A stretch of DNA of 64,000 nt from Candidatus Bipolaricaulota bacterium (GCA_026390345.1 JAPLGD010000089.1:28088-92087), one strand, 5' to 3'; counted from the first letter of the stretch, positions 28,210 through 50,388 are shown. The notes: generated from the letters alone by a model not told the origin. Translations and numbers: made by a program.

Positions 28210-28348
28210 TGCTACCTCCTTTGTCGGCGTTTTCATCTTCCCTTCGTGTTCAAAGCAGGAATGCAACATCACTCTAGCAGATTCCCCCCCCAGTAGTCTG
28301 TAACACCGATTACGCTGCAATCTGCCTCCTTCCCTGTCTCCATCGTCA

Positions 28349-34087: not shown

Positions 34088-34429
34088 GTCTCTCCTTACT
34101 CCAAAACCAGCAACATCCATCCCAAGCCACGCACACCCGAAAGCGACGAAAGACGAACCGAAGGGCGCCCCTTAGCGGGGCACAGGAATGTAGATCAGAA
34201 GAGGCATGTTGCGCTGTCGTTTCCGCACCATGGCACGATCACAGTGCATCATACGCTGCCCCCCGGCGTGGAGTCAACAACGCTTGTCCTGGACAGGTGG
34301 CCGCTCGTGCCCCCCTTCCGGTCCCGCCACGTCGAGGGACACGTGCGTCCTCGAGAGACCGGATGAGTGTCGGGCCTTCGCTGCCCAGGCGCCGTTGTGC
34401 CAGCCCCGTGCTCCGACCATGCTCGACCT

Positions 34430-35236
34430 ATGGACACCCGAGCCGTTCGTTTCGCCCGGCGGCGCCTCGTCCTTGCGCTCGCCGTCGTCGTGCTCACGGG
34501 GTGCACGGGCCGGGAGGAGCCGATCGCGGTGCTCACAGCGGCGGTCATCACCGGTGCCGCACCGCTTGAGATCGCCTTCGACCTGTCGTACTCAGTCTGT
34601 GGCGAGAACGGATCGGCGACGTACGAACTCGACTTCGGCGACGCCTCGGATTCGTCGGTGGGCTCCGACCTCGGCGTTGTCGTGCACCACACGTACGGCG
34701 CCGGAACCTACGACGCCGTGCTGATCCTGACGGATGCTCGCGGCCAGCAGGACTCGGACACCCTGACCATCACGGCGGACGCGAGCGGGCCTCCCGTCGG
34801 AACGTCGGTCGGGGACACGGCTCCCGACTTCACCGCCCACACGACGGGCGGCGGGTCACTGACCCTCTACGACCACCGCGGCGAGGTGATCCTCCTCGAC
34901 TTCTGGGGGGCGTGGTGCGCGCCGTGCCGGAAGAGCATGCCGCACCTCGACGCCCTGATTCGCGAATACGCCGACAACGGAGTCGTGGCGGTCGTTATCA
35001 GCACAGATGCCGCGGAGCAGACGTCGATCGACTTCCTCGAAGACGGCGGGTACGACGCGTTCCTCTCCGTCTGGGAACCCGGCGGCAAGAGCGGAAGCCC
35101 ACTCACCGAGCTGTACGGGTTGAACGGGACGGACGTTGGCATCCCGTGCACCTTCGTGATCGACCGCCAGGGGGTCATCCGCTACGTAGGCCACCCGCTC
35201 GACCTGACCGCCGAGATGCTCGAGGCCATCCTCTAG
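34430..35236 (+). CDS. Lipoprotein: N-terminal PKD/Ig-like beta-sandwich fused to a TlpA/ResA-like thioredoxin domain (WCAPC)
   Basis: LTGC lipobox. Beta-sandwich segment YELDFGDASDSS...YDAVLILTDARG. Thioredoxin fold with LDFWGAWCAPCR. Confidence 0.7.
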   Translation: MDTRAVRFARRRLVLALAVVVLTGCTGREEPIAVLTAAVITGAAPLEIAFDLSYSVCGENGSATYELDFGDASDSSVGSDLGVVVHHTYGAGTYDAVLILTDARGQQDSDTLTITADASGPPVGTSVGDTAPDFTAHTTGGGSLTLYDHRGEVILLDFWGAWCAPCRKSMPHLDALIREYADNGVVAVVISTDAAEQTSIDFLEDGGYDAFLSVWEPGGKSGSPLTELYGLNGTDVGIPCTFVIDRQGVIRYVGHPLDLTAEMLEAIL

Positions 35237-35401
35237 GTCTACCCATCGGAAGCCTGCCAACGCAGAGGTCGCGGAGAACGCAGAGACCGGCAAGTCCCAG
35301 CGCGGTGCGAGAAAGCCGACACGCTCTCTACCTGGATCGCCTCCGCGCCGCTCCGCGGTAAGACGCCTCAAGAGCTCCTAGAGCCACCCTGCGCTCGGCC
35401 G

Positions 35402-36832
35402 CTAGCGTCCCGCGTCTTCCTTCTCCCGACGGATGTCGTCGAGCGCCTCGCGATCGACGTGCGTAGGGTACTCGCCTGAGAAGCAGGCATCGCAGCACGA
35501 GATCTCCCCGTAAAGCGACCGGAGCGCGGAGAGCTCCTGATAGACGACGGCGTCGGCGCCGATCATGCGGCAGACGTCGTCGACGGTACGGTTCGCCGCA
35601 ATGATCTCTGCCGTCGTCGACATGTCGATCCCGTAGACACACGGCGAGACCACCGGCGGAGCGGCGCTGATCACGTAGACCTCCCGCGCCCCAGCACCCC
35701 GTAGGAGTTCGACCAACCGGCGCGACGTCGTCCCCCGGACGATCGAGTCGTCGACAACGGCCACCCTCCGCCCCTCGAGCACGCCACGGATCGGGTTCAG
35801 CTTCAACCCGACCATCCGACGGCGCTCCTCATCGGTCGGGAGGATGAAGCTCCGCCCAATGTGATGGTTCTTCGCCAGGCCGCGCCGGAAAGGAATCCCG
35901 AGCGCTTGCGCCATGCTCGAGGCGAACAGGAACCCCGACGCCGGGACGTCGATGACCACATCGGGACGGAGCCCCGCACGACGAACGACGTCGGCGAGCG
36001 CGCGCCCCATGCGTTCTCGCTCGGCCGCGACGACCCTCCCTTGCAGCACCGAATCCTCGCGGGCGAAGTAGATGTACTCAAACACGCAGAACGCCGGCTT
36101 CTCCCGAGGGCCCTGGTGCCGATGCACCGTCCCCGTAGCGTCAATGAAGACGGCCTCGCCCGCGCCGATGTCCCCCTCGACCCGGAACCCGAGGTAGTCG
36201 AGGCACGTCGTCTCCGACGCGATGGCGTACTCGGGCCCCTTCGGGGTTTGCCGAACCCCGAGGACCATCGGCCGGATCCCGTGCGGGTCGGAGAACGCTA
36301 GGAGGCCGCGCCCCGCGATCAGGCAGATCACCGCGTACGCGCCGTGGATCGCCCGCCGCGTGGCGTCGACACACGAGAAGAGGTCATCAAAGGTAAGGGC
36401 CCGGAGGTCTCGCTGCTCCAGTGCCGCGGCGAACGTGTACAGGATCAGGGCGACGTCGTTCGACGTGTCCACCAGACGGTGGTGCTCGGTGTAGAGGTTC
36501 TCGCGCACCTCGGCGAAGTTGACGACGTTGCCGTTGTGGACCATGGCGAGCCCGTACGGGTAGTTGACGTGCACCGGTTGGGCATCCTCGACGTCCGTCG
36601 ACCCCATCGTCGCGTAGCGGACGTGACCGAGGCCCCACGTCCCTCGCAGCCGTTCCTGATGACGGTCCTCAAAAACGCGGCTGACGAGCCCGCGGCCGAT
36701 CTTGACGTGGAACGAGCCGTCGAACGTGATGGCGCCGGCAGCATCCTGGCCTCGATGTTGCAGGGTCGTCAGGCCGAAGATCAGGTCGGCGGCCACCTCC
36801 GAGCGTCCCCAGATCCCTAGGACTCCGCACAT
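35402..36832 (-). CDS. purF: Amidophosphoribosyltransferase
   Basis: N-terminal MCGVLGIWG (Ntn Cys1) and a PRTase domain. Start at Met148 of the listed ORF; the long Arg-rich upstream extension is a high-GC artefact. Confidence 0.9.
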   Translation of the reverse strand: MCGVLGIWGRSEVAADLIFGLTTLQHRGQDAAGAITFDGSFHVKIGRGLVSRVFEDRHQERLRGTWGLGHVRYATMGSTDVEDAQPVHVNYPYGLAMVHNGNVVNFAEVRENLYTEHHRLVDTSNDVALILYTFAAALEQRDLRALTFDDLFSCVDATRRAIHGAYAVICLIAGRGLLAFSDPHGIRPMVLGVRQTPKGPEYAIASETTCLDYLGFRVEGDIGAGEAVFIDATGTVHRHQGPREKPAFCVFEYIYFAREDSVLQGRVVAAERERMGRALADVVRRAGLRPDVVIDVPASGFLFASSMAQALGIPFRRGLAKNHHIGRSFILPTDEERRRMVGLKLNPIRGVLEGRRVAVVDDSIVRGTTSRRLVELLRGAGAREVYVISAAPPVVSPCVYGIDMSTTAEIIAANRTVDDVCRMIGADAVVYQELSALRSLYGEISCCDACFSGEYPTHVDREALDDIRREKEDAGR

Positions 36833-37440
36833 GGTGTCCTCCCGCCAGCCGACGCGGTCCACAATCGGCCCTCGCTTTGGAACCACCTTCGCAGCGCTCG
36901 GCTGTAGAGGCCGTGTTCGACGGCGAGGCCGCGCCGCTTCACCTCGTCGAGCGTCGTCGCGCCTTGGAGCGACACCATCTCCTGCGCCAGCACGCGCCCC
37001 GTGTCGACCCTCTCGTCCACAAGGTGGACGGTGATCGTTGTCTCCGCCAGCCTGCGCTGGAACGCCCACCCGTAGCCGTCCATGCCCTGATACTCGGCCG
37101 TGTCCGCGGGGTGGATGTTGACGATCCGGCCTCGGTATCGGCCGATGACCGCCGGAGACAAGACGCGCATGAATCCCGCGAGAATGAGGGCGTCCACGCG
37201 CCACGGCTCGAGCGTCTCGAGAAGGCGCTGTCCGTACGCGTCGGCGTCCAGGCCGCGCGACGGCACGACGCACGTTGGGATCCCGGCGCGGCGTGCGATC
37301 TCGAGGCCCCCGGCCGTCGAACGGTTCGACACCACCACCACCACGTCACAGACGCCGGAGAGGCACCCGTCGCCGACCTCGGCGACGATCCGCTCGAGGT
37401 TCGACCCCCGGCCCGAGATCAAGACCGCTACGCTTCGCAT
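36817..37440 (-). CDS. purN: Phosphoribosylglycinamide formyltransferase
   Basis: AVLISGRGSNL...FMRVL...IVNIHP motifs. Overlaps the purF start. Confidence 0.85.
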   Translation of the reverse strand: MRSVAVLISGRGSNLERIVAEVGDGCLSGVCDVVVVVSNRSTAGGLEIARRAGIPTCVVPSRGLDADAYGQRLLETLEPWRVDALILAGFMRVLSPAVIGRYRGRIVNIHPADTAEYQGMDGYGWAFQRRLAETTITVHLVDERVDTGRVLAQEMVSLQGATTLDEVKRRGLAVEHGLYSRALRRWFQSEGRLWTASAGGRTPCAES

Positions 37441-38679
37441 CTAAAGCCTCCGCCCGATGTCTCGCCTTGCGTGCATCCCCGCGAAGCGGATCCGATCGAC
37501 ATTCCGGTACGCCCGGTCGATGGCCTCGTCCAGGCTGTCGGCACGGGCAACCACGTGCAGCACGCGCCCGCCGCTCGTGAGGAGCCGATCGCCGTCGCGT
37601 CGGGTCGCTCCGTGGAAGACCAGCACGTCAGGGTCGACGCTCTCGAGGCCCACGATCTCGCGGCCCGCCGTGAACGCTCCCGGGTAGCCCCCCGACGCCA
37701 GCACGACGTCCACGGCGAACCCGTCGCCTGCTGAAATCCCCATCCCGTCCCATGTCCCCTCACAGCACGCGTGCATCGCGTCGAGGAGATCGCCGCGAAG
37801 GAGCGGCAGGACGGCCTCGGCCTCCGGGTCGCCGAGCCGCGCGTTGTACTCCAGGACCTTCGGCCCTTCGTCCGTCACCATCAGCCCGAGGTAGAGGAAT
37901 CCGCAGTACTTGATCCCCTCCGACCGAAGCCCGGCGAGGGTCGGTTCGAGGATCGTTCGCCGGACAACGCCGAGGGCCTCAGCGCCGAGCGCCGGGACGG
38001 GTGCGAACGCTCCCATCCCTCCGGTGTTCGGTCCGCGGTCTCCGTCGTACACCGCCTTGTGGTCCTGCGCCGGGGGAAGGACGGCGTACGCGCGGCCGTC
38101 CGTCACACACAGCACCGAGACCTCCCAGCCGTCGAGGGGCTCCTCGACGAACACAGGCTCGTCCGCCGGGCGGGATCGCCGCATTTCATGCCACGCCTCT
38201 TGGGCACGGGCCGGCGAATCGCAGACGACGACTCCCTTCCCTGCCGCGAGCCCGTCCGCCTTCACGACGAGCCGGCCGCCCCAGCGATTCGCCGCGGCCT
38301 CGACCTCGGCGGTCGTCGCGACCTCCGCGTGCTCGGCGCACGGGATGCCGTGCCTCTCCATGAACCGCTTCGCCCACAGCTTCGAGCTTTCCACCCGCGC
38401 CGCCGCCGCCGTCGGGCCGAACGCAAGGGTTGAGGTCGTCGCAAGACGGTCCACGACCCCTGCGGCCAGCGGCTCTTCACCGCCGACAACCAGGAGATCG
38501 AGGCTCAGCCGCTCGCACGCTGCGGCGACCGCCTCCGCGTCGGTCGGACAGACCGCGACGTTCGGCGACGTCCCTCCGTTCCCGGGGAGGACGAACACGG
38601 ACTTGGCCCGGGCGCTCTGCGCCAGCTTCCACGCGAGCGCGTGCTCTCGTCCGCCGGAGCCGAGCACGCCGACGTTCAC
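37441..38679 (-). CDS. purD: Phosphoribosylamine-glycine ligase
   Basis: ATP-grasp with VNVGVLGSGGREHA start. The GTG start overlaps the purCE stop as GTGA. Confidence 0.9.
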   Translation of the reverse strand: MNVGVLGSGGREHALAWKLAQSARAKSVFVLPGNGGTSPNVAVCPTDAEAVAAACERLSLDLLVVGGEEPLAAGVVDRLATTSTLAFGPTAAAARVESSKLWAKRFMERHGIPCAEHAEVATTAEVEAAANRWGGRLVVKADGLAAGKGVVVCDSPARAQEAWHEMRRSRPADEPVFVEEPLDGWEVSVLCVTDGRAYAVLPPAQDHKAVYDGDRGPNTGGMGAFAPVPALGAEALGVVRRTILEPTLAGLRSEGIKYCGFLYLGLMVTDEGPKVLEYNARLGDPEAEAVLPLLRGDLLDAMHACCEGTWDGMGISAGDGFAVDVVLASGGYPGAFTAGREIVGLESVDPDVLVFHGATRRDGDRLLTSGGRVLHVVARADSLDEAIDRAYRNVDRIRFAGMHARRDIGRRL

Positions 38680-40106
38680 GACCCGACCTCCCCGCCGCCC
38701 GCCGAGCGCCCTTCGGCGCGACACGCCACGTCCGCCTCGTCGACCCGCTTCCGGTTTGCCTCGATCCCGCGGCGAAGCTCCTCTCGGACCCGCGGAAGCG
38801 CCAGGGCGCGCAGCGCCGCCTGCGCCGCGTTCTCCGCGCCAAGAACCGTGACCGCCGGCACGCGGGGCGGCATAAAGAGCGACGAGTTCAGGTGGAGCTT
38901 GGCCTCCGCACCATCCCGGAACGGCGGGCAGTTGATCACCGGAAGCGTGACGTTCGCCGCCAGCGCCCCGCCGAGGCCGTTTGACAGCCCTGCGACTGCG
39001 ATGATGGCTCCCGGCTCTCGCGCTTCGTCCAGTTCCGCCGCCAGGGACGCGACGCGGTCCGGCGTCCGGTGCGCTGACGCAACGCGGAGAAGCACGGCCA
39101 CTCCGTACGGGCGAAGCTCGGCGGCAATCCGCTCCGCGTGCTCGCGATCCTTCGGCGAGCCCATCACGATCGCCACGAACCCATCGCGCAGGAGGCCCGC
39201 GTCGACCAGTGCACGAAGGAGATCCCTATCTCCGCCGCCGCTCACCGAGCAGCCCTCGACGGCCGGCGTCTCTCCGGTGATCCGATCGCAGATCTCACGG
39301 TAACGCCGGGCTGTCTCCGAGATGACGTCGTCGGGAAGGGATGTTGGGCGCCGTCCCTTCGACTCTTCGGCGAGGAGCCACGCGCGGACGATCTCCTTGT
39401 CCCACCCTTCGACGCCCGCCGGGTTGCGGTCGTACTCCTCCGCGAGCCAGAACCGCGACGAGTCCGGCGTGTGCATCTCGTCGATCAGAACGACGCGATC
39501 GTCGATCAGCCCGAACTCGTACTTCGTGTCGACGAGGAGCACTCCCTTCTCGCGCAGGTAGCGGGACCCGTCGTCGAACAACGCGAGGCTCGCCTCCTCG
39601 AGGCGGCGGTAGACGTCGCGCGAGGCGATCCCGCGCTCGACGATCTCCTGCGGGGTGACGGGCTCGTCTCTTGCCGCCTTCGTCGTCGGGGTGACGATCG
39701 GCGCCGCGAGCCGCTCGTTCTTGGCCAACCCTTCCGGGAGCTTCACACCGGAGAGACTCCTCGCTCCCGCAGCGTACGCCCTCCACGCCGACCCGGTCAG
39801 GTAGGCGCGCACCACCATCTCCAGAAGGATCGGCCGAGCCTCCCGGACGAGCATCGCGCGCTCCCCGATCGTCCGGATCCAGTGGTGTGGGACCCGGTCG
39901 TGGGTTCGCTCGAACCAGAACGAGGCGAGCCGCGTGAGCGCGGCACCCTTGCCCGGAATGCAGCAGTCGAGGACGCGGTCGAACGCGGAGAGGCGGTCCG
40001 TGGCGACGATCAGCCGCGTCGTGGCATCGATGCGGAAGCTGTCGCGCACTTTCCCGCGATGAACGCACTCGAGCTGCGGCGTCGAGAAGCGGCTCACGGT
40101 CTGCAT
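38676..40106 (-). CDS. Bifunctional SAICAR synthetase (PurC, N-terminal) / AIR carboxylase-type PurE (C-terminal) fusion
   Basis: aa 1-~290 is PurC (HRGKVRDSF; ATDRLSAFD; IPGKGAALTRLASFWFE). aa ~300-476 is PurE (FVAIVMGSPKDREHAE...RVASAHRTPDR...IAVAGLSNGLGGALAANVTLPVINCPP). The SNGLG loop resembles class II PurE (as I recall it, human PAICS has RSNGLG) rather than class I (E. coli AGGAAHLPG). Confidence 0.85.
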   Translation of the reverse strand: MQTVSRFSTPQLECVHRGKVRDSFRIDATTRLIVATDRLSAFDRVLDCCIPGKGAALTRLASFWFERTHDRVPHHWIRTIGERAMLVREARPILLEMVVRAYLTGSAWRAYAAGARSLSGVKLPEGLAKNERLAAPIVTPTTKAARDEPVTPQEIVERGIASRDVYRRLEEASLALFDDGSRYLREKGVLLVDTKYEFGLIDDRVVLIDEMHTPDSSRFWLAEEYDRNPAGVEGWDKEIVRAWLLAEESKGRRPTSLPDDVISETARRYREICDRITGETPAVEGCSVSGGGDRDLLRALVDAGLLRDGFVAIVMGSPKDREHAERIAAELRPYGVAVLLRVASAHRTPDRVASLAAELDEAREPGAIIAVAGLSNGLGGALAANVTLPVINCPPFRDGAEAKLHLNSSLFMPPRVPAVTVLGAENAAQAALRALALPRVREELRRGIEANRKRVDEADVACRAEGRSAGGGEVGS

Positions 40107-40115
40107 CTCGTCCTC

Positions 40116-41729
40116 CTAGTGCTGGAAGTGCCGGATCCCGGTGAAGACCAGCGAGGCCCCGCGGCTGTCAACACACGCCAGGACCTCGCGATCGCGGATC
40201 GATCCGCCGGGCTCGACGAACGTGCGCACACCGGCGTCGGCCGCGAACTCCACGCTATCCGGGAACGGGAAGAACGCGTCCGAGACGAGCACCGCGCGCC
40301 CGAGAGCGGCGCAGATTCCCTTCTCGTCAAGACTCTCGCCCGCCAGGGTCGCGCGCGCCCGCTCCACGGCGAGGCGGGTCGACACCACGCGGTTCGGCTG
40401 TCCCGCCCCCATCCCGAGGAGACGCAACGCCCCACTCGTCTCCGCGACGATGACGATCGCGTTGCTCTTCACCTGCCGAGCGGCCACGAGCCCGAACTCG
40501 ATCAGCCGGCGAAGCGCGCCGCCGGCGCCAAGGTCTCCGTCGGGGCGGGCCTTCGAGACGACCTCCAGCTTCTCGAGGAGAACGCCGTCCGCGTCCTGGA
40601 CGAGGGCCGCGCAGCCGAGGAGCTTGATCTCCTTGGGGCGTCGGAGTCCTCGGGCGTCGAGACGCACGATCCGGAGGTTCTCGTTCTGCCTCAGGTACGC
40701 GACCGCCGTCTCGTCAAACGCCGGGGCCACCACGACTTCGACGAACTTCCGCTCCGACTTGTTCGCCGCATCGAGCCCCAGGAACTCGACCGCCGCCCGG
40801 TCGACGACCGCGTTGAACGCGATCACAGACCCGAACGCGGACACCGGGTCGGATCGCCACGCCGTCTCCAGAGCGGCACGCGCCGACGATGCCTGGCAGA
40901 GGCCGCACGGGTTCGTGTGCTTGACCACGGCGCACGCGGGAGCCACGAGGTCTCGCACAGCGGCCGCCGCGGCGTGGATGTCCACGAGGTTGTTGTACGA
41001 AAGCTCTTTCCCTCCGAGCACTTCCAGGTCGTAGAGCGACGCAGCGGCGTCCCGCTCGCGCAGGACGAACGCGCCCTGGTGCGCGTTCTCCCCATAGCGC
41101 AGCTTCCGCCCGCCGTGGAACGCCAGCCGGAGCGACGTCTCGCCGAACCGCTCGTCCAGCGCCTCGGCGATCATCGAGTCGTAGTCCGCGGTGTGGTTGA
41201 AGGCCTTCCGCATCAGCCGCGCCCGCGTCTCGAGCGAGAGCGCGCCCGTGCGCGTCTCAAGCTCCTGGATCAACTCCCCGTAGTCCGCGGGGTCGCAGAT
41301 GGCGGCCACGTAGCGGTAGTTCTTCGCCGCGGCACGGATCATCGTCGGCCCGCCGATGTCGATCTGCTCGATCAGGACATCGAGCTCTGCCTTCTCGTCG
41401 CGGTACTTGCGGAACGGGTAGAGGTTGCAGACGACAAGGTCGATGGGCACGATCCCCAGGCGCTCCGCCTCGGCTCGGTCGCGCTCGCGGTCGAAGAGGA
41501 TCGCCGACTCGATCGCGAACGAGATCGTCTTCATCCGCCCCCCGAACGCCTCGGGGTTCCCCGTCACCGACGCGATGTCGACCACCGGGATTCCGGCGTC
41601 GCGCAGCGCTTGCCCGGTGCCTCCGGTCGAGATGATCTCGCAGCTCCAACGACGAAGCGCCTTCCCAAGCTCCGCCACGCCGGTCTTGTCCGAGACGCTC
41701 ACCAAAGCCCGTCGGATCTTCCAGTCCAC
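40116..41729 (-). CDS. purH: Bifunctional AICAR transformylase / IMP cyclohydrolase
   Basis: MGS-like N-terminal domain (ALVSVSDKTG; STGGT) and an AICARFT domain (537 aa). Confidence 0.95.
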   Translation of the reverse strand: MDWKIRRALVSVSDKTGVAELGKALRRWSCEIISTGGTGQALRDAGIPVVDIASVTGNPEAFGGRMKTISFAIESAILFDRERDRAEAERLGIVPIDLVVCNLYPFRKYRDEKAELDVLIEQIDIGGPTMIRAAAKNYRYVAAICDPADYGELIQELETRTGALSLETRARLMRKAFNHTADYDSMIAEALDERFGETSLRLAFHGGRKLRYGENAHQGAFVLRERDAAASLYDLEVLGGKELSYNNLVDIHAAAAAVRDLVAPACAVVKHTNPCGLCQASSARAALETAWRSDPVSAFGSVIAFNAVVDRAAVEFLGLDAANKSERKFVEVVVAPAFDETAVAYLRQNENLRIVRLDARGLRRPKEIKLLGCAALVQDADGVLLEKLEVVSKARPDGDLGAGGALRRLIEFGLVAARQVKSNAIVIVAETSGALRLLGMGAGQPNRVVSTRLAVERARATLAGESLDEKGICAALGRAVLVSDAFFPFPDSVEFAADAGVRTFVEPGGSIRDREVLACVDSRGASLVFTGIRHFQH

Positions 41730-41771
41730 GATTCCTCCTTGAACCCCTGCCCGACCTGCACCCAGGTCGGC

Positions 41772-42593
41772 CTAGGCCGCCAAGACCGCCTTCACGACGT
41801 TCTGGAACAACACCAGCCCCGCCCCTTCCTCGCTTCGCTCCGGACGCTCCCGACGGAGGCGAGGCCAGTCGTAGTGATTGAAGAGGGAGAGGTACGCCTC
41901 GGGGTGCGGCATCACGCCAAGGATCCGCCCGCTCGGGTCGCACAGCGCGGCACACGCGAGCTCCGCGCCGTTCGGGTTCGCCGGGTACCGGTCCGTCGGC
42001 CGACCGGCCTCGTCGCAGTACGTGAGGCCGTTCAGGTGAAGCCGCGCGATCTCATCCCGCAAACTCACGTCGCGAAACACGAGTCGGCCCTGCCCGTGCC
42101 GGACCGGAAGCTCCCACTCCTCGAGCCCAGCCCACACTCGCGCCGGGCACTCGGCATCCGCTCGAACCCGCACCCACCGGTCCTCGTACTTTCCGGACGC
42201 GTTCTGCATCAGGGCCGCCTCCGCGGCGCCCTCGCCGCCAACGTCCGGGACGAGACCCAGCTCGACGAGCGCTTGGAATCCGTTGCAGAACCCGATCACC
42301 ATCCCGCCGTGGCGCGCCACGGCGCGAAGACCGTCGCCCATCGTCGTCCCTCCCGGGAGCTTTCGCGTTCGGATCCGATTCGCGAGGACCCTGCCGCCGC
42401 CGAGGTCGTCGCCGAACGAGAACCCTCCGGGGAGATGGACGACGTCGAAGGCGTCGAGCTTGATGTCGCCCCGCAGAATGCTCTCCAGGTGCACCGTCCG
42501 CGCGGTGGCGCCGGCGAGTCGGTACGCGGCCGCCGTCTCCTCTTCGCAGTTGATCCCGACCCCTGCGACAACCAGCGCCTGCACGGTCCTCAT
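41772..42593 (-). CDS. purQ: Phosphoribosylformylglycinamidine synthase, glutaminase subunit
   Basis: Class I glutamine amidotransferase with GFCNGFQ (catalytic Cys) and MPHPE. ATGA overlap with the purSL stop. Confidence 0.9.
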   Translation of the reverse strand: MRTVQALVVAGVGINCEEETAAAYRLAGATARTVHLESILRGDIKLDAFDVVHLPGGFSFGDDLGGGRVLANRIRTRKLPGGTTMGDGLRAVARHGGMVIGFCNGFQALVELGLVPDVGGEGAAEAALMQNASGKYEDRWVRVRADAECPARVWAGLEEWELPVRHGQGRLVFRDVSLRDEIARLHLNGLTYCDEAGRPTDRYPANPNGAELACAALCDPSGRILGVMPHPEAYLSLFNHYDWPRLRRERPERSEEGAGLVLFQNVVKAVLAA

Positions 42594-45589
42594 CCGTACC
42601 CCTCCAAACCGCTCCGCCACGCGGTCTCGAACCGCACAAGCGGAGCTTCGACGCAGGGGCGACCGCCCGCCGAGATCCGGACCCGCGCGTCACCCGTCAC
42701 CCGCCCGATCGGCCACGCGTCTCTGCCCAAGATCCCCTCGAACGCCCGGCGCTTCTCCTCCGGCACCGTGACCACGAACCGCGACGAGCTTTCGGAGAAG
42801 AGTGGAATCCAGGGGCGTTCGGATGGCCCGAGCCCGTCGAGCACGACGTCGAACCCGAGCCCTCCCCCGATCGCCGACTCCACGAGCGCCACGGCGAGTC
42901 CCCCGTCGGAGAGGTCGTGACACGACGCCACGAGGCCGGCGGCGATCGCCTCGCCGACGCACCGATACCGGTCACGGGCCCGCTCCGCTCTCACCTGCGG
43001 CGCCGTGCCCCCGGCAAGCCCCAGCCAGCGGAAGAACTCCGACCCTCCCAGCTCGGCCTGCGTCTCGCCGATCACGTAGATCGCGTCCCCCGGGGCCTGG
43101 AGTCCCGTCGTGACGGTCTTCCGCACGTCGGGGATCCCCGCCGTCGCCGAAAAGAGGACAGTCGGCGGAATCGAGATCGTCACCCCTCCGGCGGTGAAGT
43201 CGTTCTTCATGCTGTCCTTGCCGGACGTCAACGGCACCGCGTAGGCCACGGCGATGTCGTAGAGAGCCTGGCACATCCGGACAAGCTGCCCGAGTCTGCG
43301 GCGGCCGTCCGGGTTCGTCCGCGCGTCGTAGGCCACGTTGGGAAGGCAGAAGTTGTCGTTGACGGACCAGAACTGCGGCGCTGCTGTGTCCGGTCCGGGC
43401 AGCCGCCCCCCCACCGCAACGATCCCGCGCACCGCCTCGTCGAACGCGCATGCGCACATGGCGTAGGGATCAAGGTCTCCGTACTGAGGAGCGATCCCGT
43501 TCGACACGGCGATCCCGCGGTAGTCGGACCACGAAAGGCGAAGGACGGCGGCGTCCTGCGGGCCGCCGCCGCGACCCATGAGCGGCTTGATCACGGTGCG
43601 CCCCTTCACCTCGTGGTCGTACTGCCGAATAACGCCTTCGCGGGAGCAGACGTTCCAGCTTCCGAGCACGCCGAGAAGCGCCGACTCCAGATCGACGTCG
43701 GGGACTGCCGGCGCCTCAACCGGCGGATTCGACCACTCTGCGGCGAGGCGTTTCCGCGGCGCGCCGTGATGGAGGAAGTCGAGATCCAAGCAAGCGGCCG
43801 TGCGGCCCGAGTGTCTCACCCACAGGGCCCCGTCCTCGGTGAACCGCCCGATGTCAACAGCCTCGACGCCTCGCTCGCGCGCCAGCGCGAGGAGGTCGCC
43901 CTCCACGGCGGGGTCAACAGCGAGCGTCATTCGTTCCTGCGACTCGGAGAGGAAGATCTCCCACGGCTGAATTCCCTCGTACTTGAGCGGGACCCGCTCG
44001 AGATCCACCTCCGCGCCGCCTGTGATGCGGGCCAGCTCTCCCACCGACGACGAGAGCCCGCCGGCTCCGTTGTCCGTGGCCGCCTTCACCCACCCCCGCG
44101 CGCACGCCTCCTCAAGGAAGTCGCTCGCGAGTTTCTGCGTCAGCGGGCTGCCGATCTGGACGGCGGAGCGTGGCGACTCCTCGTCCAGGTGAACGGAGGA
44201 GAACGTCGCGCCGTGAATCCCGTCTTTGCCGACGCGCCCTCCCACGACGACGATCCGGTCCTCCGCGTCGATGCGCTTCTCCCACCACGGGGCGCCCGCC
44301 ACCCGCGCCGGGGCGATCGAGCCGGATCCGCAGAAGACGAGCGGCTTCCCCGCGAAACGATCATCGAACACGAGGGCGCCGTTCACCGTGGGAATCCCCG
44401 ACTTGTTGCCCCCATCCTCGATCCCTGCGCGCACGCCGGCGAAGACCCGCCGGGGCGCCAGCTGCCCGGGAAGAAGAGGGCGGTCGTAGGTCGGCGGCGC
44501 GAAACAGAGCACGTCGGTGTTGAAGAGCAGCCTGCCGCCGCCACGCCCTGTGCCGAGCGGATCCCGGTTGCACCCCAGGATACCGGTGATCGCGCCGCCG
44601 TACGGGTCGATGGCCGACGGGCTGTTGTGGGTTTCCACCTTCCAAACGAAGACGCTGTCGTCGTCGATGCGAACGACGCCGGCGTTGTCGTCAAAGACCC
44701 TGAGGAGCCACGCCTGCCCCCACTCGCGGAGCGCCTCCCCGACCACGCGCGTCGCAGCGACGATGTACGTTCGGAAGAGCGAGTCGATCACCACGGTCGT
44801 CCCCCGGTCGCGGTCGACGAACTCGACGAGCGCATTGAACTCCTTGTGCTTGCAGTGCTCGGACCACGTCTGGGCCACGATTTCGAGTTCGCAGTCCGTC
44901 GGATCGGCGGGGAGTCCACGCCGGCCACGACTCGCCCGAACCGCCTCGCGGTCGAAGTAGTCTCGCAGGGCCACCATCTCGGCCCGGTCGAGCGACAAGA
45001 GCCGTACCTCCGACAACCGGAGCAGGCCGGCGTCGTCGCGCGGGAGAGCAATCTCCTCGATCACCGGCTGCGTCGCGACTGCGCCGCGAGGCCTCGGATC
45101 CTCGTAGGCGTCGGCCGGTCCCGATCGGAGGACGTGGACGAGTGGGTTCCCGACGAGTTCCTCGGCGATGCGCCCAAGCTCCGCCGGGGACAGCGCGCGC
45201 TCCAGCCAGTAGACGTCACGCGATGCCGCCCGACCGGAGGCAATCTGCGGCGCACCGGAGAACAGGTCGCGGAGCACGGTCAGCACGGTTTGCCCCTCGT
45301 CGTCCGTCACGCCCGGCCGCTTGTCGACCGAGATGAACGACCGGAATCCCAGGCGGGCCGGCGCTCCGACACCCACGACACACGAGACCTCATTCCCGAG
45401 CGCGGCGAGCGCCCGATCCGTCCTCGCAAGGTCGAGCGCGGGGGACACCGAGTAGATCTTCGACGTCGTGACTCGCCCGGTATCGATCGAGAGGAAGTCG
45501 GCGGCCTGGCGGCGGACCCGTTCGCCGACCGGGTCGGCGCCGCGGTCGGGTCGGGAGGACACGTGAAGGTGCGTCCAGGTCTCAGGCAT
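42590..45589 (-). CDS. purL: PurS-PurL fusion: FGAM synthase synthetase subunit with N-terminal PurS-like domain(s)
   Basis: Start at Met184 of the listed 1182-aa ORF; the upstream part overlaps purM and is spurious. aa ~40-150 has PurS-like beta-alpha-beta repeats (FISVDKRPGVTDDEGQTVLTVLRDLF). The remainder is a PurL PurM-like tandem domain (SHCKHKEFNA...; VETHNSPSAIDPYGGAITG). Confidence 0.85.
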   Translation of the reverse strand: MPETWTHLHVSSRPDRGADPVGERVRRQAADFLSIDTGRVTTSKIYSVSPALDLARTDRALAALGNEVSCVVGVGAPARLGFRSFISVDKRPGVTDDEGQTVLTVLRDLFSGAPQIASGRAASRDVYWLERALSPAELGRIAEELVGNPLVHVLRSGPADAYEDPRPRGAVATQPVIEEIALPRDDAGLLRLSEVRLLSLDRAEMVALRDYFDREAVRASRGRRGLPADPTDCELEIVAQTWSEHCKHKEFNALVEFVDRDRGTTVVIDSLFRTYIVAATRVVGEALREWGQAWLLRVFDDNAGVVRIDDDSVFVWKVETHNSPSAIDPYGGAITGILGCNRDPLGTGRGGGRLLFNTDVLCFAPPTYDRPLLPGQLAPRRVFAGVRAGIEDGGNKSGIPTVNGALVFDDRFAGKPLVFCGSGSIAPARVAGAPWWEKRIDAEDRIVVVGGRVGKDGIHGATFSSVHLDEESPRSAVQIGSPLTQKLASDFLEEACARGWVKAATDNGAGGLSSSVGELARITGGAEVDLERVPLKYEGIQPWEIFLSESQERMTLAVDPAVEGDLLALARERGVEAVDIGRFTEDGALWVRHSGRTAACLDLDFLHHGAPRKRLAAEWSNPPVEAPAVPDVDLESALLGVLGSWNVCSREGVIRQYDHEVKGRTVIKPLMGRGGGPQDAAVLRLSWSDYRGIAVSNGIAPQYGDLDPYAMCACAFDEAVRGIVAVGGRLPGPDTAAPQFWSVNDNFCLPNVAYDARTNPDGRRRLGQLVRMCQALYDIAVAYAVPLTSGKDSMKNDFTAGGVTISIPPTVLFSATAGIPDVRKTVTTGLQAPGDAIYVIGETQAELGGSEFFRWLGLAGGTAPQVRAERARDRYRCVGEAIAAGLVASCHDLSDGGLAVALVESAIGGGLGFDVVLDGLGPSERPWIPLFSESSSRFVVTVPEEKRRAFEGILGRDAWPIGRVTGDARVRISAGGRPCVEAPLVRFETAWRSGLEGYG

Positions 45590-46727
45590 CGCCCTCCCCG
45601 TTCGCCGCGAATCGAGCAATCCCCAGGCCCCAAGCGCGAGCGTCGATCGTGATGCCGTCCTCGGGAACAACCCTCCCCGCGACCCGCGCACTCCTGCCGC
45701 AAGCCTCGAACGCTTGCACGAGTGCCCGTCCGTGCCCCTCCGGGACGACGGCGAGCATCCCGTTCCCCATGTTCCACTCTGCGTACGCTTCGCGTGCCGA
45801 CAACCCGCCCAGCTCAGCGAGGCGGAGAACCCAGCCGTGCGGAGACCAGAGATCGACGAGCTCCGCACCGAGTCCCGTCGCGCGGAGGACCCGCGGGAAG
45901 TTGCCGGGAATCCCGCCCCCCGTGATGTGCGCCAGTCCTCGAATCGGAACCCCCGAGGCGAGAGCGCTGACGACGGACGGCGCATAGATGAGCGATGGCG
46001 TGAGGAGAAGATCGCCCCACGACGTCCCTTCGTGAAGCGCGAGGTGCCACGCGTCGCCGAGGGCCTGCTCGAGAATCTTCCGAGCCAGCGTGAATCCGTT
46101 GCTGCGCAGGCCCGCGCTCCGAAGGGCGACGACCTCATCGCCCGGCACGAGACCCTTGCCGCAGAGGGCCGGCCGCTCTCCGGGGAGTACCCCGATGGCG
46201 GTCGCGCACCAGTTGACGTGGGGTCCGTCGCCCCACCCCCCGACGCGCCGGCCGAGGGCCGCGATCTCGCCTCCCGTCACGGCCACGCCGCACTCCCGTG
46301 CGGCGCGCGCGAGACCCGACATCATCGCGTCGATCGTCGCCTCGTCGAGTCGATCCGCGTCGATGATGTTCGACACCGCGACCGGCGCGGCGCCGATCGC
46401 CGCGAGATCGTCGAGAACCATGGCGAGAAGGTCGAAGCCCAGGGTGTCAAAGCGGCCAACGCGTTCTGCAACCTCGAGCTTCGTGCCGATCCCATCGGAC
46501 GTCACCGCAACGCGCGCGTCTCCGATCCGAACGACGTTGGCGAAGCTCTCCTCGTCCCCTTCGATCCGAAGCCCGTCCCGCCCTCGGAGAGCGCCGAACG
46601 TGCTCTGCGCGTAGGCATAGGCGATCGCCGAGCAACGATCCACCCCCGCCTGGTCCACGCCCTTCGCGTTTGCGTCCGGCTCGACCTGCGACCTTCCCCT
46701 GCGAACCCCCGCACTTCCTCCGCCCAC
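45582..46727 (-). CDS. purM: Phosphoribosylformylglycinamidine cyclo-ligase (AIR synthetase)
   Basis: GVDQAGVD..., SDGIGTKL and the PurM-type N- and C-domains. GTG start with AGGAGGG Shine-Dalgarno. First gene of the pur operon. Confidence 0.9.
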   Translation of the reverse strand: MGGGSAGVRRGRSQVEPDANAKGVDQAGVDRCSAIAYAYAQSTFGALRGRDGLRIEGDEESFANVVRIGDARVAVTSDGIGTKLEVAERVGRFDTLGFDLLAMVLDDLAAIGAAPVAVSNIIDADRLDEATIDAMMSGLARAARECGVAVTGGEIAALGRRVGGWGDGPHVNWCATAIGVLPGERPALCGKGLVPGDEVVALRSAGLRSNGFTLARKILEQALGDAWHLALHEGTSWGDLLLTPSLIYAPSVVSALASGVPIRGLAHITGGGIPGNFPRVLRATGLGAELVDLWSPHGWVLRLAELGGLSAREAYAEWNMGNGMLAVVPEGHGRALVQAFEACGRSARVAGRVVPEDGITIDARAWGLGIARFAANGEGDA

Positions 46728-46866: not shown

Positions 46867-46895
46867 TTTTTAGGTGCTGGCCGCCGAAGTGTCAA
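46867..46895 (-). promoter_or_regulatory. Candidate sigma70 promoter of the pur operon: TTGACA-N17-TAAAAA on the minus strand
   Basis: A perfect -35 hexamer with 17-nt spacing to an A-rich -10, which would give a ~130-nt leader before purM. Confidence 0.4.
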
Positions 46896-47172
46896 CGGGG
46901 ACATCGGCCGCCTGGTGAGGAAGTGTCGTTCTCGTCTGCGTTTCCGATCGTCGCCGCAATGCCCCGCCTCGTTGGGGGACACAGGTCTTGTCTGGCTGCC
47001 TGGCATCCCGGCGCCTCGCGGCGACGAACTCTAGAGCTGTACTGAAGACGGCGAACCCTTCCCGCCTCGCCACGCCAAGGGCAGACGGCCGGCGCGCCGC
47101 TTCCTGTAAGGCTTGTCCAGCCCCGACCGATCGAGTATCGTGGGCGCAGTATCGCAGGAAGCCAGGAGAGCT

Positions 47173-47796
47173 ATGCCGAACCTTCACATCATCGACCATC
47201 CCCTGATCCAGAGCAAGCTCACGCGGATGCGCGACGCGACGACAGACAGCGAGACGTTCCGGCGGCTGCTCGACGAGCTGACGGCGTTCATGGTGTACGA
47301 GATCACGCGTGCGTATCCGTTGCGCGAGGTCACGGTTCGGACGCCGCTCGAGACCATGACCGGACGCGTCCTCGGCGTCCCCGTGGTCCTCGTCCCCATC
47401 CTGCGCGCGGGAACGGGAATGCTCGGGGGCGTGCTCGATCTCATCCCCACGGCCAAGGTTGGCCACGTCGGCATCTACCGAGACCCGAAGACCCTCCAGC
47501 CGGTCGAGTACTACTGCAAGCTTCCCCCGGACCTCGCTCGTGCGCAGATCATCATCGTCGACCCGATGCTTGCGACGGGCGGGAGCGCCGTCGCCGCGAC
47601 GCGGATCATCAAGCGCGAGGGGGGGAGGGACGTTCAGTTCCTCTGTCTCGTCGCGTCGCCGGAGGGCGTGAGTGCGTATTCGGCGGAGCACCCCGACGTG
47701 CCGATCTACTGCGCGGCACTGGACCGCGAGCTGAACGCGAAGGGGTATATCCTTCCCGGTCTCGGCGACGCGGGCGACCGTCTCTTCGGAACCTAG
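47173..47796 (+). CDS. upp: Uracil phosphoribosyltransferase
   Basis: MPNLHIIDHPLIQSKLTRMRD start; PRPP-binding IIIVDPMLATGGS; YILPGLGDAGDRLFGT C-terminus. AGGAG Shine-Dalgarno. Confidence 0.9.
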   Translation: MPNLHIIDHPLIQSKLTRMRDATTDSETFRRLLDELTAFMVYEITRAYPLREVTVRTPLETMTGRVLGVPVVLVPILRAGTGMLGGVLDLIPTAKVGHVGIYRDPKTLQPVEYYCKLPPDLARAQIIIVDPMLATGGSAVAATRIIKREGGRDVQFLCLVASPEGVSAYSAEHPDVPIYCAALDRELNAKGYILPGLGDAGDRLFGT

Positions 47797-47813
47797 ACGC
47801 GAGGCGACCCGGC

Positions 47814-48491
47814 CTACGACGCCTGGCGCCGCCAATCCTCAAGAACCGCCGGCAGCTCGGCGAAGTCTCGGATCGTGCGCCACGCTGCTTCGCCTACCGC
47901 GGGGTCCTTCGGGTTCGCGGCGACGGCGAGGCCGACGATCCGCATGGCCGGCACGTCGTTGACGTGATCCCCAACGAAGCAGATCTCGTCCAGGTGGAAT
48001 CCCCTTTCCGAGGCGAGAACGCGCAGCGCTCGGTCCTTGGCCCACAAGTCGACGACCGTCTCCGCCGTTCCGGTGAATCGCCCATCGAGAACGTGGATGC
48101 GATTCGCGAGGGCAAAGTCGAGCTCGAGGTCCTCGCACACCCAGTCGGCCACGAGGTCGACCCCCGAGGAGAGAATCCCCATTCGGTAGTGCCCCCGCAG
48201 GGTCTTGACCGCGCCGACGACCCCGTCAGCGTACGGCGCCGGCAGCACCCGCGCCGCCACGTCAGCGACGGAGACACCCGCCAAGAGAGCGGCGTCTCGC
48301 GCCACCCACTCGGCGTACGCCTCGGGCCGGGAGAAGTAGTCCGCCAGGAGCGCCCGCGACTTCGCTCCCACGCCGGCGGCGGCGGCCACGGCCCCCCAAC
48401 TCGACTCGAACTCGATGCCGTGGTAGCGCACCAGCGTACCGTCGAGGTCGAAGACGATCGTCGAGATGCCGCGCCGCCGAACCCGCCCCAC
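47814..48491 (-). CDS. HAD-superfamily hydrolase (HAD-IB / phosphoserine-phosphatase-like)
   Basis: IVFDLDGTL motif I and FVGDHVNDVPAM motif IV. GTG start immediately after the upstream stop. Confidence 0.7.
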   Translation of the reverse strand: MGRVRRRGISTIVFDLDGTLVRYHGIEFESSWGAVAAAAGVGAKSRALLADYFSRPEAYAEWVARDAALLAGVSVADVAARVLPAPYADGVVGAVKTLRGHYRMGILSSGVDLVADWVCEDLELDFALANRIHVLDGRFTGTAETVVDLWAKDRALRVLASERGFHLDEICFVGDHVNDVPAMRIVGLAVAANPKDPAVGEAAWRTIRDFAELPAVLEDWRRQAS

Positions 48492-48492
48492 G

Positions 48493-50388
48493 CTACGGCA
48501 CCACGAGCGTAGATCCGGCCGCAATCCGAAGGCCTTCGATCGACCCGACCGGAAGTTCGAGCGCGAACTGGAACGGAGCGCTCGGCGCGTAGAGATCGCC
48601 GGAATTCGCCGCCATCCGCGCGGCGCCCACGAACGTCCCGTCGGCCGCGAAGAACGCGATCTCGAGGTCAAACAGCACCGTCGACATGGTGAATCGACGC
48701 TCGGCCTCGGTGTCGAACGGGAAGAGAATCCCCGAGAACGCCTCGACGTAGGCCCCCGGGAACCCTCGGAAACCCGTCCAATGCCCGACGTCGTCGGCCG
48801 CGACGCGAACAGAGATGTCCACGCTGGAGCCGTCCGCGCGCACGATCGTCACGACGTCGGAGCCCATCGCCCCGGCAACCCCGAACCCGGCCGCGGCCGC
48901 GTCCACCGAGGCAAGCGGAGCCGTATCCTGCGCCGTCGAGGGGTAGACGGTCACCGCGGATTCGCCGATGCCGTTTCCGTCCGCGTCAATGACCGGAGTC
49001 CCCTGCCAGAAGTTGCCGACTCCGTCGATCGTCCAGACGTTCCCCGTGCCGTAGTCGAGGACGCTCGCGGCGGTCACGCCGAGGAACACGTTTCGCGCAA
49101 AGCGGTTCGCCTTGGAGTCGAGGTTCACATAGACGTGGTTCCCGTTGTCCGTGAAGACGTTGTTCACAACGTCGTTCCCGGCCGCCGTGGACCGACCGTA
49201 CGCCTCGGGGAAGAGGAGCCCGCGCGACTGCTGCGCGATCAGGTTGCCTTCGATTCGGTTCTCGCTTCCGGAGAGCGCAATCCCGTACCCTCCAGACACG
49301 ATCGTGTTCGCGACGATCTCGTTCCCGGTTGCCTGAGCGGACAGGGAGATGCCGATCTCGCAATCGGACAACCCGTTTCCGACCACGCGGTTGGCCGACG
49401 CAAGCTCCAGCGTAATCCCTTGCTTCGTGTTCTTGTGGTAGAGGATGTTGCCGGAAAGCTCGTTCTCGTCCGAACCACCCGAGACGATGATCCCATTAGC
49501 GTTCGCAAAGACGACGTTGCCGGACACGTGGTTCCCATCCGCCGCGATGAGGCGAATCCCTGTGTCGTTCGCCAAGCACTGGTTGTCGAGGACCTGGTTG
49601 TCCGACGAGGTTGTCATCTGGATGCCGGCGAGCCGGTTGTTGCGCAGCGAGTTCCCTTGCAGCGTGTTTCGATCGGACTGGAAGAGGAAAATCCCGTGCT
49701 CGGTGAGGACGGGAGTCGTTCGGTACACCGCGTTCCCGGAAACGACCGAGTCCGTCACGAACGCAAGCTGGATCCCGTCACTGTTCATGAGGTCGTTCCC
49801 CGAGATGACGACGTTCCGGCTGTCGGCTACCGTCAGGTGCGCCGGAGCCTCTCCCTCGATCGTCACGCCGTCGGCGCCGTAGACGTAGAGGATCGGGCGG
49901 TTGTTCACCGTGTTGCTTCGGTCGATGTCGTGGTGGTACTCGGCGGCCTCCTCTCCGATGACGCGCAAGCCGACCCCATTCACGTACAAGACGCAGCTCG
50001 TCACGGTGATCTCGCGAGACGAGATGATCTCGATCCCGTTCATCGAGTTCGAGATCGCGCACTGCTCGATTCGACCGCCCGAGGAGAACGCGATTCGGAT
50101 CGCCGCGCCGTCCGCCGCTACCGCGCTCTGGATGATCAAACCCCGAAGGACGAAATGGGCCGTGACGTTCTCGATCTTCACCGCGTACTTCGCGCCATCG
50201 GCGGAGATTTCCCATCCCGTGATGACGTACGGATCGGCCTCCGTACCGCTTCCGGAAACGACCCCGTTCTCCGCGGTAAACTCCGCCTCTCCGAGGATCG
50301 CAATCGCGCCTCGGGATCCCCCAAGCGCGGCCACGGACACCGCAAGGGCCGCCCCCACGATCAAGAGAAAGACAAGCAACCGCTTCAT
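48493..50388 (-). CDS. Secreted parallel beta-helix (NosD-like) repeat protein fused to a C-terminal DUF192 (COG1430) domain
   Basis: Signal peptide (MKRLLVFLLIVGAALAVSVAAL) and about 20 beta-helix rungs (SGN/NxI repeats). The last ~120 aa carry the DUF192 pattern (DISVRVAADDVGHWTGFRGF...ILFPFD...RFTMSTVLFDLEIAFFAADGTFV). Confidence 0.65.
   Translation of the reverse strand: MKRLLVFLLIVGAALAVSVAALGGSRGAIAILGEAEFTAENGVVSGSGTEADPYVITGWEISADGAKYAVKIENVTAHFVLRGLIIQSAVAADGAAIRIAFSSGGRIEQCAISNSMNGIEIISSREITVTSCVLYVNGVGLRVIGEEAAEYHHDIDRSNTVNNRPILYVYGADGVTIEGEAPAHLTVADSRNVVISGNDLMNSDGIQLAFVTDSVVSGNAVYRTTPVLTEHGIFLFQSDRNTLQGNSLRNNRLAGIQMTTSSDNQVLDNQCLANDTGIRLIAADGNHVSGNVVFANANGIIVSGGSDENELSGNILYHKNTKQGITLELASANRVVGNGLSDCEIGISLSAQATGNEIVANTIVSGGYGIALSGSENRIEGNLIAQQSRGLLFPEAYGRSTAAGNDVVNNVFTDNGNHVYVNLDSKANRFARNVFLGVTAASVLDYGTGNVWTIDGVGNFWQGTPVIDADGNGIGESAVTVYPSTAQDTAPLASVDAAAAGFGVAGAMGSDVVTIVRADGSSVDISVRVAADDVGHWTGFRGFPGAYVEAFSGILFPFDTEAERRFTMSTVLFDLEIAFFAADGTFVGAARMAANSGDLYAPSAPFQFALELPVGSIEGLRIAAGSTLVVP

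Follow-up and report, generated by a model that had tools for sequence, protein, structure and literature searches.

Introduction

PurK together with class I PurE, which carry out the carboxylation of 5-aminoimidazole ribonucleotide (AIR) in purine biosynthesis, has been described as the prokaryotic route (PMC9376930, PMC10484210), and AIR carboxylase has been described as almost exclusive to eukaryotes (PMC4177761). This difference also underlies the case for PurE and PurK as targets of antibacterials. Animal PAICS (PDB 2H31, 4JA0) consists of an N-terminal PurC, the succinylaminoimidazolecarboxamide ribonucleotide (SAICAR) synthetase, and a C-terminal class II PurE. A bacterial class II PurE is found in Treponema denticola (TdPurE; PDB 3RG8/3RGG), a free-standing protein of 159 aa whose AIR carboxylase activity was demonstrated by Tranchimand et al. 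in 2011, as cited in PMC9376930. Here we analyzed a 64,000-nt stretch of DNA (G+C, ~66%) from Candidatus Bipolaricaulota bacterium (GCA_026390345.1, JAPLGD010000089.1:28088-92087), referred to below as the window, which contains a purine (pur) operon with two fused genes: a PurC joined to a PurE of the class II type and a PurL with a built-in PurS-like N-terminus.

PurL also occurs in several described arrangements. The large form (lgPurL), as in Salmonella (1T3T) and human PFAS, carries an N-terminal PurS-like double domain, a linker, a synthetase core and a C-terminal glutaminase. In Thermotoga maritima, the PurL:PurQ:PurS complex (PDB 3D54) has a composition of 1:1:2, with PurS as a free homodimer. 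A form named mdPurL, with a core of the small PurL (smPurL) type and ~200 extra N-terminal residues, accompanied by a separate purQ with no purS nearby, was described in methanogens by Brown et al. in 2011; five of six mdPurL archaea had no purS, and one methanogen carried both mdPurL and purS (PMC3261824).

Results

PurC is fused to a PurE domain of the class II type

The PurC-PurE protein is identical to NCBI MCX6094866.1. Its features are as follows, with positions counted from the first letter of the window.

38676..40106, minus strand: purC-purE fusion, 476 aa, a single open reading frame (ORF) without internal stops; Pfam SAICAR_synt and AIRC.
39267..40106, minus strand: PurC (SAICAR synthetase) domain, aa 1-280, of the long yeast/mycobacterial type, by phmmer and Foldseek.
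39180..39266, minus strand: inter-domain junction, aa 281-309; a loop modelled with low confidence leads into a helix conserved across the family (RxLxxLVxAGLxxDG).
38727..39179, minus strand: class II PurE (AIR carboxylase-type) domain, aa 310-460, by phmmer, TIGR01162, neighbor-joining tree and Foldseek.
39069..39077, minus strand: catalytic Ser-Ala-His, S344-A345-H346, equivalent to human PAICS S301-A302-H303; from the translation, and invariant in the family alignment.
38967..38993, minus strand: class-diagnostic "70s loop" AGLSNGLGG, aa 372-380; from the translation and a gap-free alignment to human PAICS.

Pfam placed SAICAR_synt at aa 15-250 (E=5e-63) and AIRC (PF00731) at aa 311-453 (E=1.9e-33), confirming the order claimed by the original prediction, in which PurC is fused N-terminal to a class II-like PurE. 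The AGLSNGLGG loop is followed downstream by PVINCPP, and together they constitute the class II signature (G-x-S-N-G/A-L-G/S plus C-P-P). The class II references read AGRSNGLGP with CPP in human and Bombyx PAICS and AGRSNALSG with CPP in TdPurE, whereas the class I reference, E. coli PurE, reads AGGAAHLPG with VPV downstream. The human and E. coli loop motifs quoted in the original prediction were both right.

Similarity searches gave the same assignment. When the isolated PurE domain was used as the phmmer query, TdPurE (3rg8) scored 79 bits and PAICS 70-73 bits, Methanocaldococcus jannaschii PurE, which has a class I-type loop, 63 bits, and the bacterial class I enzymes at most 54 bits. With the whole PurC-PurE protein as the query, Bombyx PAICS scored 85, human PAICS 80 and TdPurE 76 bits. 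The class I equivalog model TIGR01162 gave the PurE domain 98.9 bits, under its cutoff of 149.6.

To human PAICS, the PurE domain aligned without gaps through the catalytic region, so that A345, H346 and G377 align with Ala302, His303 and Gly334, respectively. The roles of Ser301, Ala302 and His303 in the catalytic Ser-Ala-His of human PAICS have been described; His303 acts as the universal base, with CO2 held by the Ala302 and Gly334 backbone amides (PMC9376930). A345, H346 and G377 are all invariant in an alignment of 23 diverse members of the PurC-PurE family, as is the P-loop G316-S317-x-x-D320 (GSxSD), and the AGLSNGLGG, PVINCPP and SAH motifs are invariant or nearly so.

In a midpoint-rooted neighbor-joining tree of 32 PurE domains, the PurE domain grouped with TdPurE and PAICS on the class II side, and the class I side held the E. 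coli, M. jannaschii, archaeal and Caldilineaceae sequences. The fused family formed a clade of its own, the nearest neighbors of which were stand-alone PurEs of Peregrinibacteria/Peribacteria, not TdPurE. Foldseek superposed the PurE domain of the AlphaFold model on TdPurE with a TMt of 0.85-0.87 and a root-mean-square deviation (rmsd) of 2.2-2.5 Å. The PurE domain shares with TdPurE the SNxLxG loop and the CPP motif, and TdPurE is its best sequence match, but the identity is only ~36% and the domain stands behind PurC instead of being free. By its motifs, its similarity to proven class II enzymes and its position in the tree, the PurE domain belongs to class II, and it groups apart from the class I N5-carboxy-AIR (N5-CAIR) mutases.

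purK is absent from the window and from related loci

The original prediction had noted that the operon lacks purK. We extended this absence to the window, to which the searches of the host DNA for purK, purS and purB were confined. In tblastn searches with E. coli PurK and two Caldilineaceae PurKs, no match was found in the 64 kb, and a hidden Markov model built from three PurK sequences and run against all six-frame segments of the window matched only the ATP-grasp region of PurD. There is also no second purE in the operon. Likewise, no purK was present within the fetched flanks of 13 other loci with a fused class II PurE, most of which hold a near-complete pur operon, yet purK lies immediately downstream of purE in two class I loci (L028 and L040; 52-60% identity to E. 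coli PurE). The window and the related loci support PurK-independence of the fused class II PurE, as far as gene content can indicate it.

The two class I loci, from Caldilineaceae of the Chloroflexota (L028:6098-12590 and L040:6101-14153), encode an mdPurL with a tandem PurS-like N-terminus in addition to the separate class I purE and the adjacent purK; thus, the PurS-PurL fusion is not tied to class II PurE. In an unclassified bacterial metagenome-assembled genome (MAG), PurC and a class I-type PurE (loop GGAAHLPG, 51% identity to E. coli PurE) occupy one ORF (L057:10001-11500), and therefore the PurC-PurE fusion has occurred with both PurE classes.

The PurC domain is of the yeast/mycobacterial type

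The best solved relatives of the PurC domain were yeast Ade1 (1a48, 189 bits) and Mycobacterium abscessus PurC (3r9r). The PAICS chains 2h31 and 4ja0 aligned to residues 311-438 only, and phmmer produced no alignment with the PAICS PurC domain. The AlphaFold model of the PurC-PurE protein (pLDDT 91.8, pTM 0.87) agreed, its PurC domain superposing on yeast Ade1 with a TMt of 0.85 and an rmsd of 2.2 Å. Within the junction, pLDDT fell below 50 at aa 285-289, and a helix was modelled at 292-302; this helix is conserved in the alignment of 23 family members and is kept in Hymenobacter purC genes without the PurE domain.

The protein resembles animal PAICS in having PurC at the N-terminus and class II PurE at the C-terminus and in the two consecutive reactions predicted for it. 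It differs in its PurC subtype, in the family-specific junction helix and in the modelled arrangement of the domains, which does not superpose. Since PurC is of the yeast/mycobacterial subtype, not the PAICS subtype, the fusion arose independently of the animal one. The bacterial PurC-PurE is best read as an independent, convergent fusion that would be PAICS-like in action and stands outside the PAICS family.

PurL carries two PurS-like repeats

The PurL of the operon, 999 aa from its predicted start, is exactly NCBI MCX6094869.1. The features of the PurL/PurQ pair are as follows.

42590..45589, minus strand: purL of the mdPurL/PurSL type, 999 aa; Pfam linker, AIRS and AIRS_C, with TIGR01736 as the best family.
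45362..45577, minus strand: PurS-like repeat 1, PurL aa 5-76; profile match to PurS, with the fold E6-12, H20-33, E40-49, H54-64, E70-74.
45110..45343, minus strand: PurS-like repeat 2, PurL aa 83-160, with an invariant PGVxD motif; profile match to PurS, second unit E84-158.
41772..42593, minus strand: purQ, separate glutaminase subunit, 273 aa; GATase_5 (E=6e-67) and matches to the PurQ NCBIfam models.

The smPurL model TIGR01736 matched best (479 bits, E=2.5e-143, from approximately residue 216 on), under its full-length cutoff of 525.75, and the lgPurL model scored 224 bits. A formylglycinamide ribonucleotide (FGAR) amidotransferase linker domain at ~194-249 is followed by the formylglycinamidine ribonucleotide (FGAM) synthetase core, and there is no glutaminase domain. 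The adjoining gene encodes PurQ with the catalytic motifs GFCNGFQ and HPE.

The first ~190 residues of PurL had no Pfam match, including none to the PurS family PF02700. In a single-sequence search, repeat 2 weakly matched Thermus thermophilus PurS (2cuw, E=0.21), and a homolog search with the N-terminal 212 aa alone gave one match, since the rapid divergence of the extension defeats the word index. With a profile of 18 PurL N-terminal extensions, from the window and 17 fetched loci, the top eight PDB matches were all PurS proteins and covered both repeats. Positions 5-76 matched T. maritima PurS (3d54_B, E=1.1e-4) and Bacillus subtilis PurS (1t4a, E=7e-4), and positions 82-161 matched M. jannaschii PurS (2yx5, E=1.2e-3) as well as MTH169 of Methanothermobacter thermautotrophicus, 2cuw and STS178 of Sulfolobus tokodaii. 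Many PurL relatives have a precomputed PF02700 match, and some are named "PurSL" by JGI.

The AlphaFold model of PurL (pLDDT 82.4, pTM 0.84) begins with two successive beta-alpha-beta-alpha-beta units. Its whole chain superposed on the Salmonella and human lgPurL with a TMq of 0.78-0.80 and on smPurL with a TMq of 0.62 (T. thermophilus) or 0.45-0.49 (T. maritima). The protein therefore resembles lgPurL in the PurS-like double domain, linker and core, which superpose over 999 residues, but the C-terminal glutaminase of lgPurL is supplied here by the separate PurQ, and the core sequence is nearer to smPurL. It contains the same functional modules as the three of the T. maritima complex, TmPurS being the best PDB match for repeat 1, but in place of a free homodimer it has diverged tandem repeats covalently joined to PurL. 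The methanogen mdPurL shares its layout and gene context; that protein is archaeal and its PurS nature was only suspected, whereas the present one is bacterial and both of its repeats are PurS-like by profile and by fold. No free purS was found within the window or, when tested with a single PurS query, in any mapped mdPurL locus. This PurL is a large PurL minus the glutaminase domain or, equivalently, a small PurL with a covalently attached PurS pseudo-dimer. The earlier claim that PurS is fused in front of a small-type PurL, with PurQ separate, thus held for the fusion and for PurQ, but there are two PurS-like repeats rather than one.

Organization of the operon

The operon occupies window positions 35402-46727 on the minus strand as eight contiguous, uninterrupted ORFs in the order purM, purL, purQ, purH, purC-purE, purD, purN and purF. 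The gene names, coordinates and strand given in the original prediction agreed with both Pfam and NCBIfam; its count of nine genes did not hold, since eight ORFs were counted. Start codons were chosen by ribosome-binding site (RBS) context and homology and then checked by translation. The remaining genes and the junctions are as follows.

45582..46727, minus strand: purM (AIR synthetase), 381 aa, GTG start with a GGAGG RBS; Pfam AIRS and AIRS_C, TIGR00878 (E=1e-57).
40116..41729, minus strand: purH (aminoimidazolecarboxamide ribonucleotide [AICAR] transformylase/inosine monophosphate [IMP] cyclohydrolase), 537 aa; AICARFT_IMPCHas (E=5.6e-86) and MGS.
37441..38679, minus strand: purD (glycinamide ribonucleotide [GAR] synthetase), 412 aa; Pfam GARS_N, GARS_A and GARS_C.
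36817..37440, minus strand: purN (GAR transformylase), 207 aa; Pfam Formyl_trans_N (E=2e-37).
35402..36832, minus strand: purF (amidophosphoribosyltransferase), 476 aa, starting MCGV with the N-terminal nucleophile Cys; TIGR01134, 418 bits (cutoff 350).
Junction purM/purL: 8-nt overlap.
Junction purL/purQ: 4-nt ATGA overlap, the purQ ATG lying over the purL stop.
Junction purQ/purH: 42-nt gap, the largest in the operon.
Junction purH/purC-purE: 9-nt gap.
Junction purC-purE/purD: 4-nt GTGA overlap, the purD GTG lying over the purC-purE stop.
Junction purD/purN: abutting.
Junction purN/purF: 16-nt overlap.

Four of the seven junctions overlap (8, 4, 4 and 16 nt), bearing out the tight packing with ATGA/GTGA overlaps reported before, and the eight ORFs are presumably co-transcribed as one operon. 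They correspond to 10 canonical gene equivalents and encode 9 of the 10 chemical steps from phosphoribosyl pyrophosphate to IMP, counted by the animal-type route with one-step AIR carboxylation. Only purB is missing; it was found neither in the operon nor among the window ORFs scanned. A purA gene lies 4.5 kb downstream of the operon, past ileS, and in a related locus (L002) purA is likewise ~4.5 kb downstream of purF.

Across the whole window, Rfam gave no match, whether to known purine riboswitches or to further curated RNA elements, and consensus promoter and terminator scans gave nothing above the shuffled expectation (three terminator-like matches were found versus 4.3 expected). At 46867-46895 on the minus strand, ~140 nt upstream of the purM start, there is a perfect TTGACA followed by a 17-nt spacer and TAAAAA. 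This site, which was not called by the consensus scan and coincides with the 3' end of the unassigned ORF that precedes purM, is a possible candidate for the operon promoter.

The ORFs flanking the operon, at 46870-47835 and 34856-35371 (both minus strand), had no Pfam match. The latter, downstream of the operon, is overlapped by an AhpC/TSA-PKD gene on the plus strand (34367-35236) and is unlikely to be genuine. Two long plus-strand ORFs, at 39138-42920 (1260 aa) and 42917-45652 (911 aa), were rejected as high-GC antisense artefacts (~70% G+C coding), because strongly supported minus-strand genes cover the entire stretch.

Distribution of the two fusions

We searched a collection of 5.8 billion proteins and found that all of the best 120 relatives of PurC-PurE contained both Pfam domains in ~460 aa and that all of the best 120 relatives of PurL had the ~1000-aa form. 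Loci were mapped by a genome scan for the fusion among species-representative genomes, followed by tblastn. Other genomes with the purC-purE fusion, which the original prediction had proposed to look for, were found in the form of 13 further loci, all independently assembled, in which the fused ORF is uninterrupted; these include the cultured isolate Hymenobacter jeongseonensis.

The same operon was present in at least eight phylum-level lineages, with cross-lineage protein identities of ~40-64%. The order purM-mdpurL-purQ-purH-purCE-purD-purN-purF was found in Bipolaricaulis, an Atribacteria MAG, a Deltaproteobacteria MAG and one Cloacimonadota MAG. Partial operons, ending at contig ends, were found in a second Cloacimonadota MAG and in Bacteroidetes, Calditrichota and Chlorobiota MAGs, and Hymenobacter, including the cultured H. 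jeongseonensis, has a rearranged version. In the Bacteroidales loci that were fetched, purC stood alone, its surroundings being free of other pur genes. The patchy spread within Bacteroidota suggests transfer of the whole module.

In a library of representatives at 50% identity, the PurE-domain query matched 9 clusters with a cutoff of E<=1e-30, rising to 341 with E<=1e-10 and to 2418 with E<=1e-3; the PurE-domain family shows tight conservation and little diversity. Several Hymenobacter species have a clean deletion of the class II PurE domain, and H. jeongseonensis (L004) retains it. In four Hymenobacter purC genes (L014:10001-10960, L016:10001-10930, L018:196-1150 and L019:10001-10940), the ORF ends just past the linker helix (NLVxAGxxKD*).

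Both fusions are common, tend to occur together, and belong to large bacterial families already in the databases; they are not rarities, and they are poorly annotated. The terms "rare" and "atypical" used in the original prediction were thus overstated, given the shared form of all 120 best relatives of each protein, the spread over at least eight phylum-level lineages and the publication of mdPurL in 2011 (PMC3261824). For the bacterial PurC-PurE fusion, no description was found in the literature searched.

Discussion

Proposed working of the operon

Direct carboxylation of AIR with CO2, yielding 4-carboxy-AIR (CAIR), is the most likely reaction of the PurE domain, and it would need no ATP, bicarbonate or PurK. 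The Ser-Ala-His and the class II SNGLG loop would form the CO2/AIR pocket, and the fused PurC domain would condense CAIR with aspartate in an ATP-dependent reaction. By analogy with every solved PurE, the protein probably has an octameric PurE core with the PurC domains outside, which would keep consecutive active sites together. In the conversion of FGAR to FGAM, the two PurS-like repeats would replace, within one chain, the free PurS dimer of the PurL:PurQ:PurS2 complex, and the separate PurQ glutaminase would deliver ammonia to PurL. We infer the enzymatic activity, the PurK-independence, the octamer and any channelling from these comparisons. That all three parts hold jointly, i.e., direct AIR carboxylation by PurE, use of CAIR by the attached PurC, and a PurL with a built-in PurS pair working with PurQ, we consider probable.

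Several observations weigh against this proposal. Ser-Ala-His is followed by Arg (SAHR), the class I residue, instead of the Lys found in most relatives and in the proven class II enzymes, and Leu occupies the loop position held by Arg in PAICS and TdPurE; both positions are variable within the fused family. When the monomer model was compared with PAICS, both domains aligned but the whole-chain rmsd was ~23 Å (TMq 0.46). The inter-domain arrangement of PAICS is not reproduced by the monomer model, and therefore PAICS-like channelling is speculative. The likeness to PAICS put forward in the original prediction accordingly stands in domain order and PurE class and fails in PurC subtype and modelled geometry. 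Finally, the fused family also occurs in aerobic Hymenobacter, some species of which have no PurE domain. This loss indicates that the fused PurE is dispensable in some aerobic backgrounds and is therefore not simply an adaptation to CO2-rich anoxic niches.

Alternative explanations

The PurE domain could instead be a class I-style N5-CAIR mutase, supplied with substrate either by a PurK whose gene lies elsewhere in the genome or by carbamate that forms without an enzyme when CO2 is high. The SAHR sequence would fit such an enzyme, and the purK search covered the 64-kb window. Its loop, however, reads SNGLG and not GAAHLPG, the domain groups with enzymes proven to be class II and scores under the class I NCBIfam cutoff, and purK, adjacent to purE in two class I loci, is in no fetched locus with a fused class II PurE; we regard this explanation as improbable. 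A somewhat smaller chance attaches to the idea that the fused PurE serves mainly as an oligomerization scaffold or is a redundant copy, with CAIR coming from a separate purE located elsewhere. In its favor, precisely the PurE domain is gone from some Hymenobacter species that keep PurC and the linker helix, so the domain can be dispensable, and a fusion of PurC to class I PurE also exists. Yet 23 diverse family members show no variation in the Ser-Ala-His, the GSxxD P-loop or any part of the CO2/AIR loop, which would be unexpected of a decaying or structural domain, and the operon, holding all steps except that of purB, contains no other purE.

For PurL, the N-terminal extension might not be a working PurS equivalent, in which case a free purS elsewhere would still be required. 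The similarity to PurS is weak in the single-sequence search (E=0.21, with no PF02700 match), and one methanogen has both genes. The eight best PDB matches of the profile, however, were PurS proteins and spanned both repeats, the complete chain superposes on lgPurL, in which the N-domain plays the PurS part, and five of the six mdPurL archaea have no purS (PMC3261824); purS was also found neither in the window nor, with the single PurS query, in the mapped mdPurL loci. We think this explanation very unlikely, about as much so as a scaffold PurE. The source being a metagenome-assembled genome, assembly or frameshift artefacts could in principle have created the fusions, but the same uninterrupted ORFs occur in the 13 independently assembled loci, including that of cultured H. 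jeongseonensis, and the fusion is present in 120 of the 120 best relatives of each protein, leaving an artefact with a negligible chance. Direct AIR carboxylation by a class II PurE domain, coupled to a PurL with its own PurS pair, hence remains our preferred explanation.

Other genes in the window

Two genes upstream of the pur operon, a 642-aa protein (48493-50421, minus strand) combines NosD-like right-handed beta-helix repeats with a C-terminal DUF192. Three large surface-type proteins of PKD repeats are encoded at 54352-57378, 23762-25957 and 25996-28386 (all minus strand); one combines ten PKD domains with a FlgD-Ig and a Por_Secre_tail (type IX secretion sorting) domain, a VWA domain occurs in one, and two have weak DUF11 matches. 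A 1070-aa ORF at 6150-9362 (plus strand) matches LptF/LptG permease over residues 7-361 only, with the other ~700 residues having no Pfam assignment.

Implications

Annotation hides both fusions. NCBI names PurC-PurE only as "phosphoribosylaminoimidazolesuccinocarboxamide synthase" (SAICAR synthase) and PurL only as "AIR synthase-related protein", and the JGI label "fusion protein PurCD" on some PurC-PurE relatives is a misnomer. Because of this under-annotation, automated metabolic reconstructions of such genomes will list purE, purK and purS among the missing genes, and a false prediction of purine auxotrophy may follow.

A broader reading is that class II, PurK-independent AIR carboxylation, instead of being peculiar to animals apart from a few microbes, is widespread in bacteria through a compact operon of mdPurL, PurQ and PurC-class II PurE shared across phyla, probably horizontally, and that PurC-PurE is an independently evolved PAICS-like octamer handing CAIR directly between active sites. 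We offer it tentatively, judging it rather less likely to hold in all its parts than to fail in one. The locus itself is a member of a well-conserved bacterial family, most likely with animal-type chemistry. As a natural, independent replicate of the PAICS fusion, this family could be used to test whether such a fusion brings substrate channelling.

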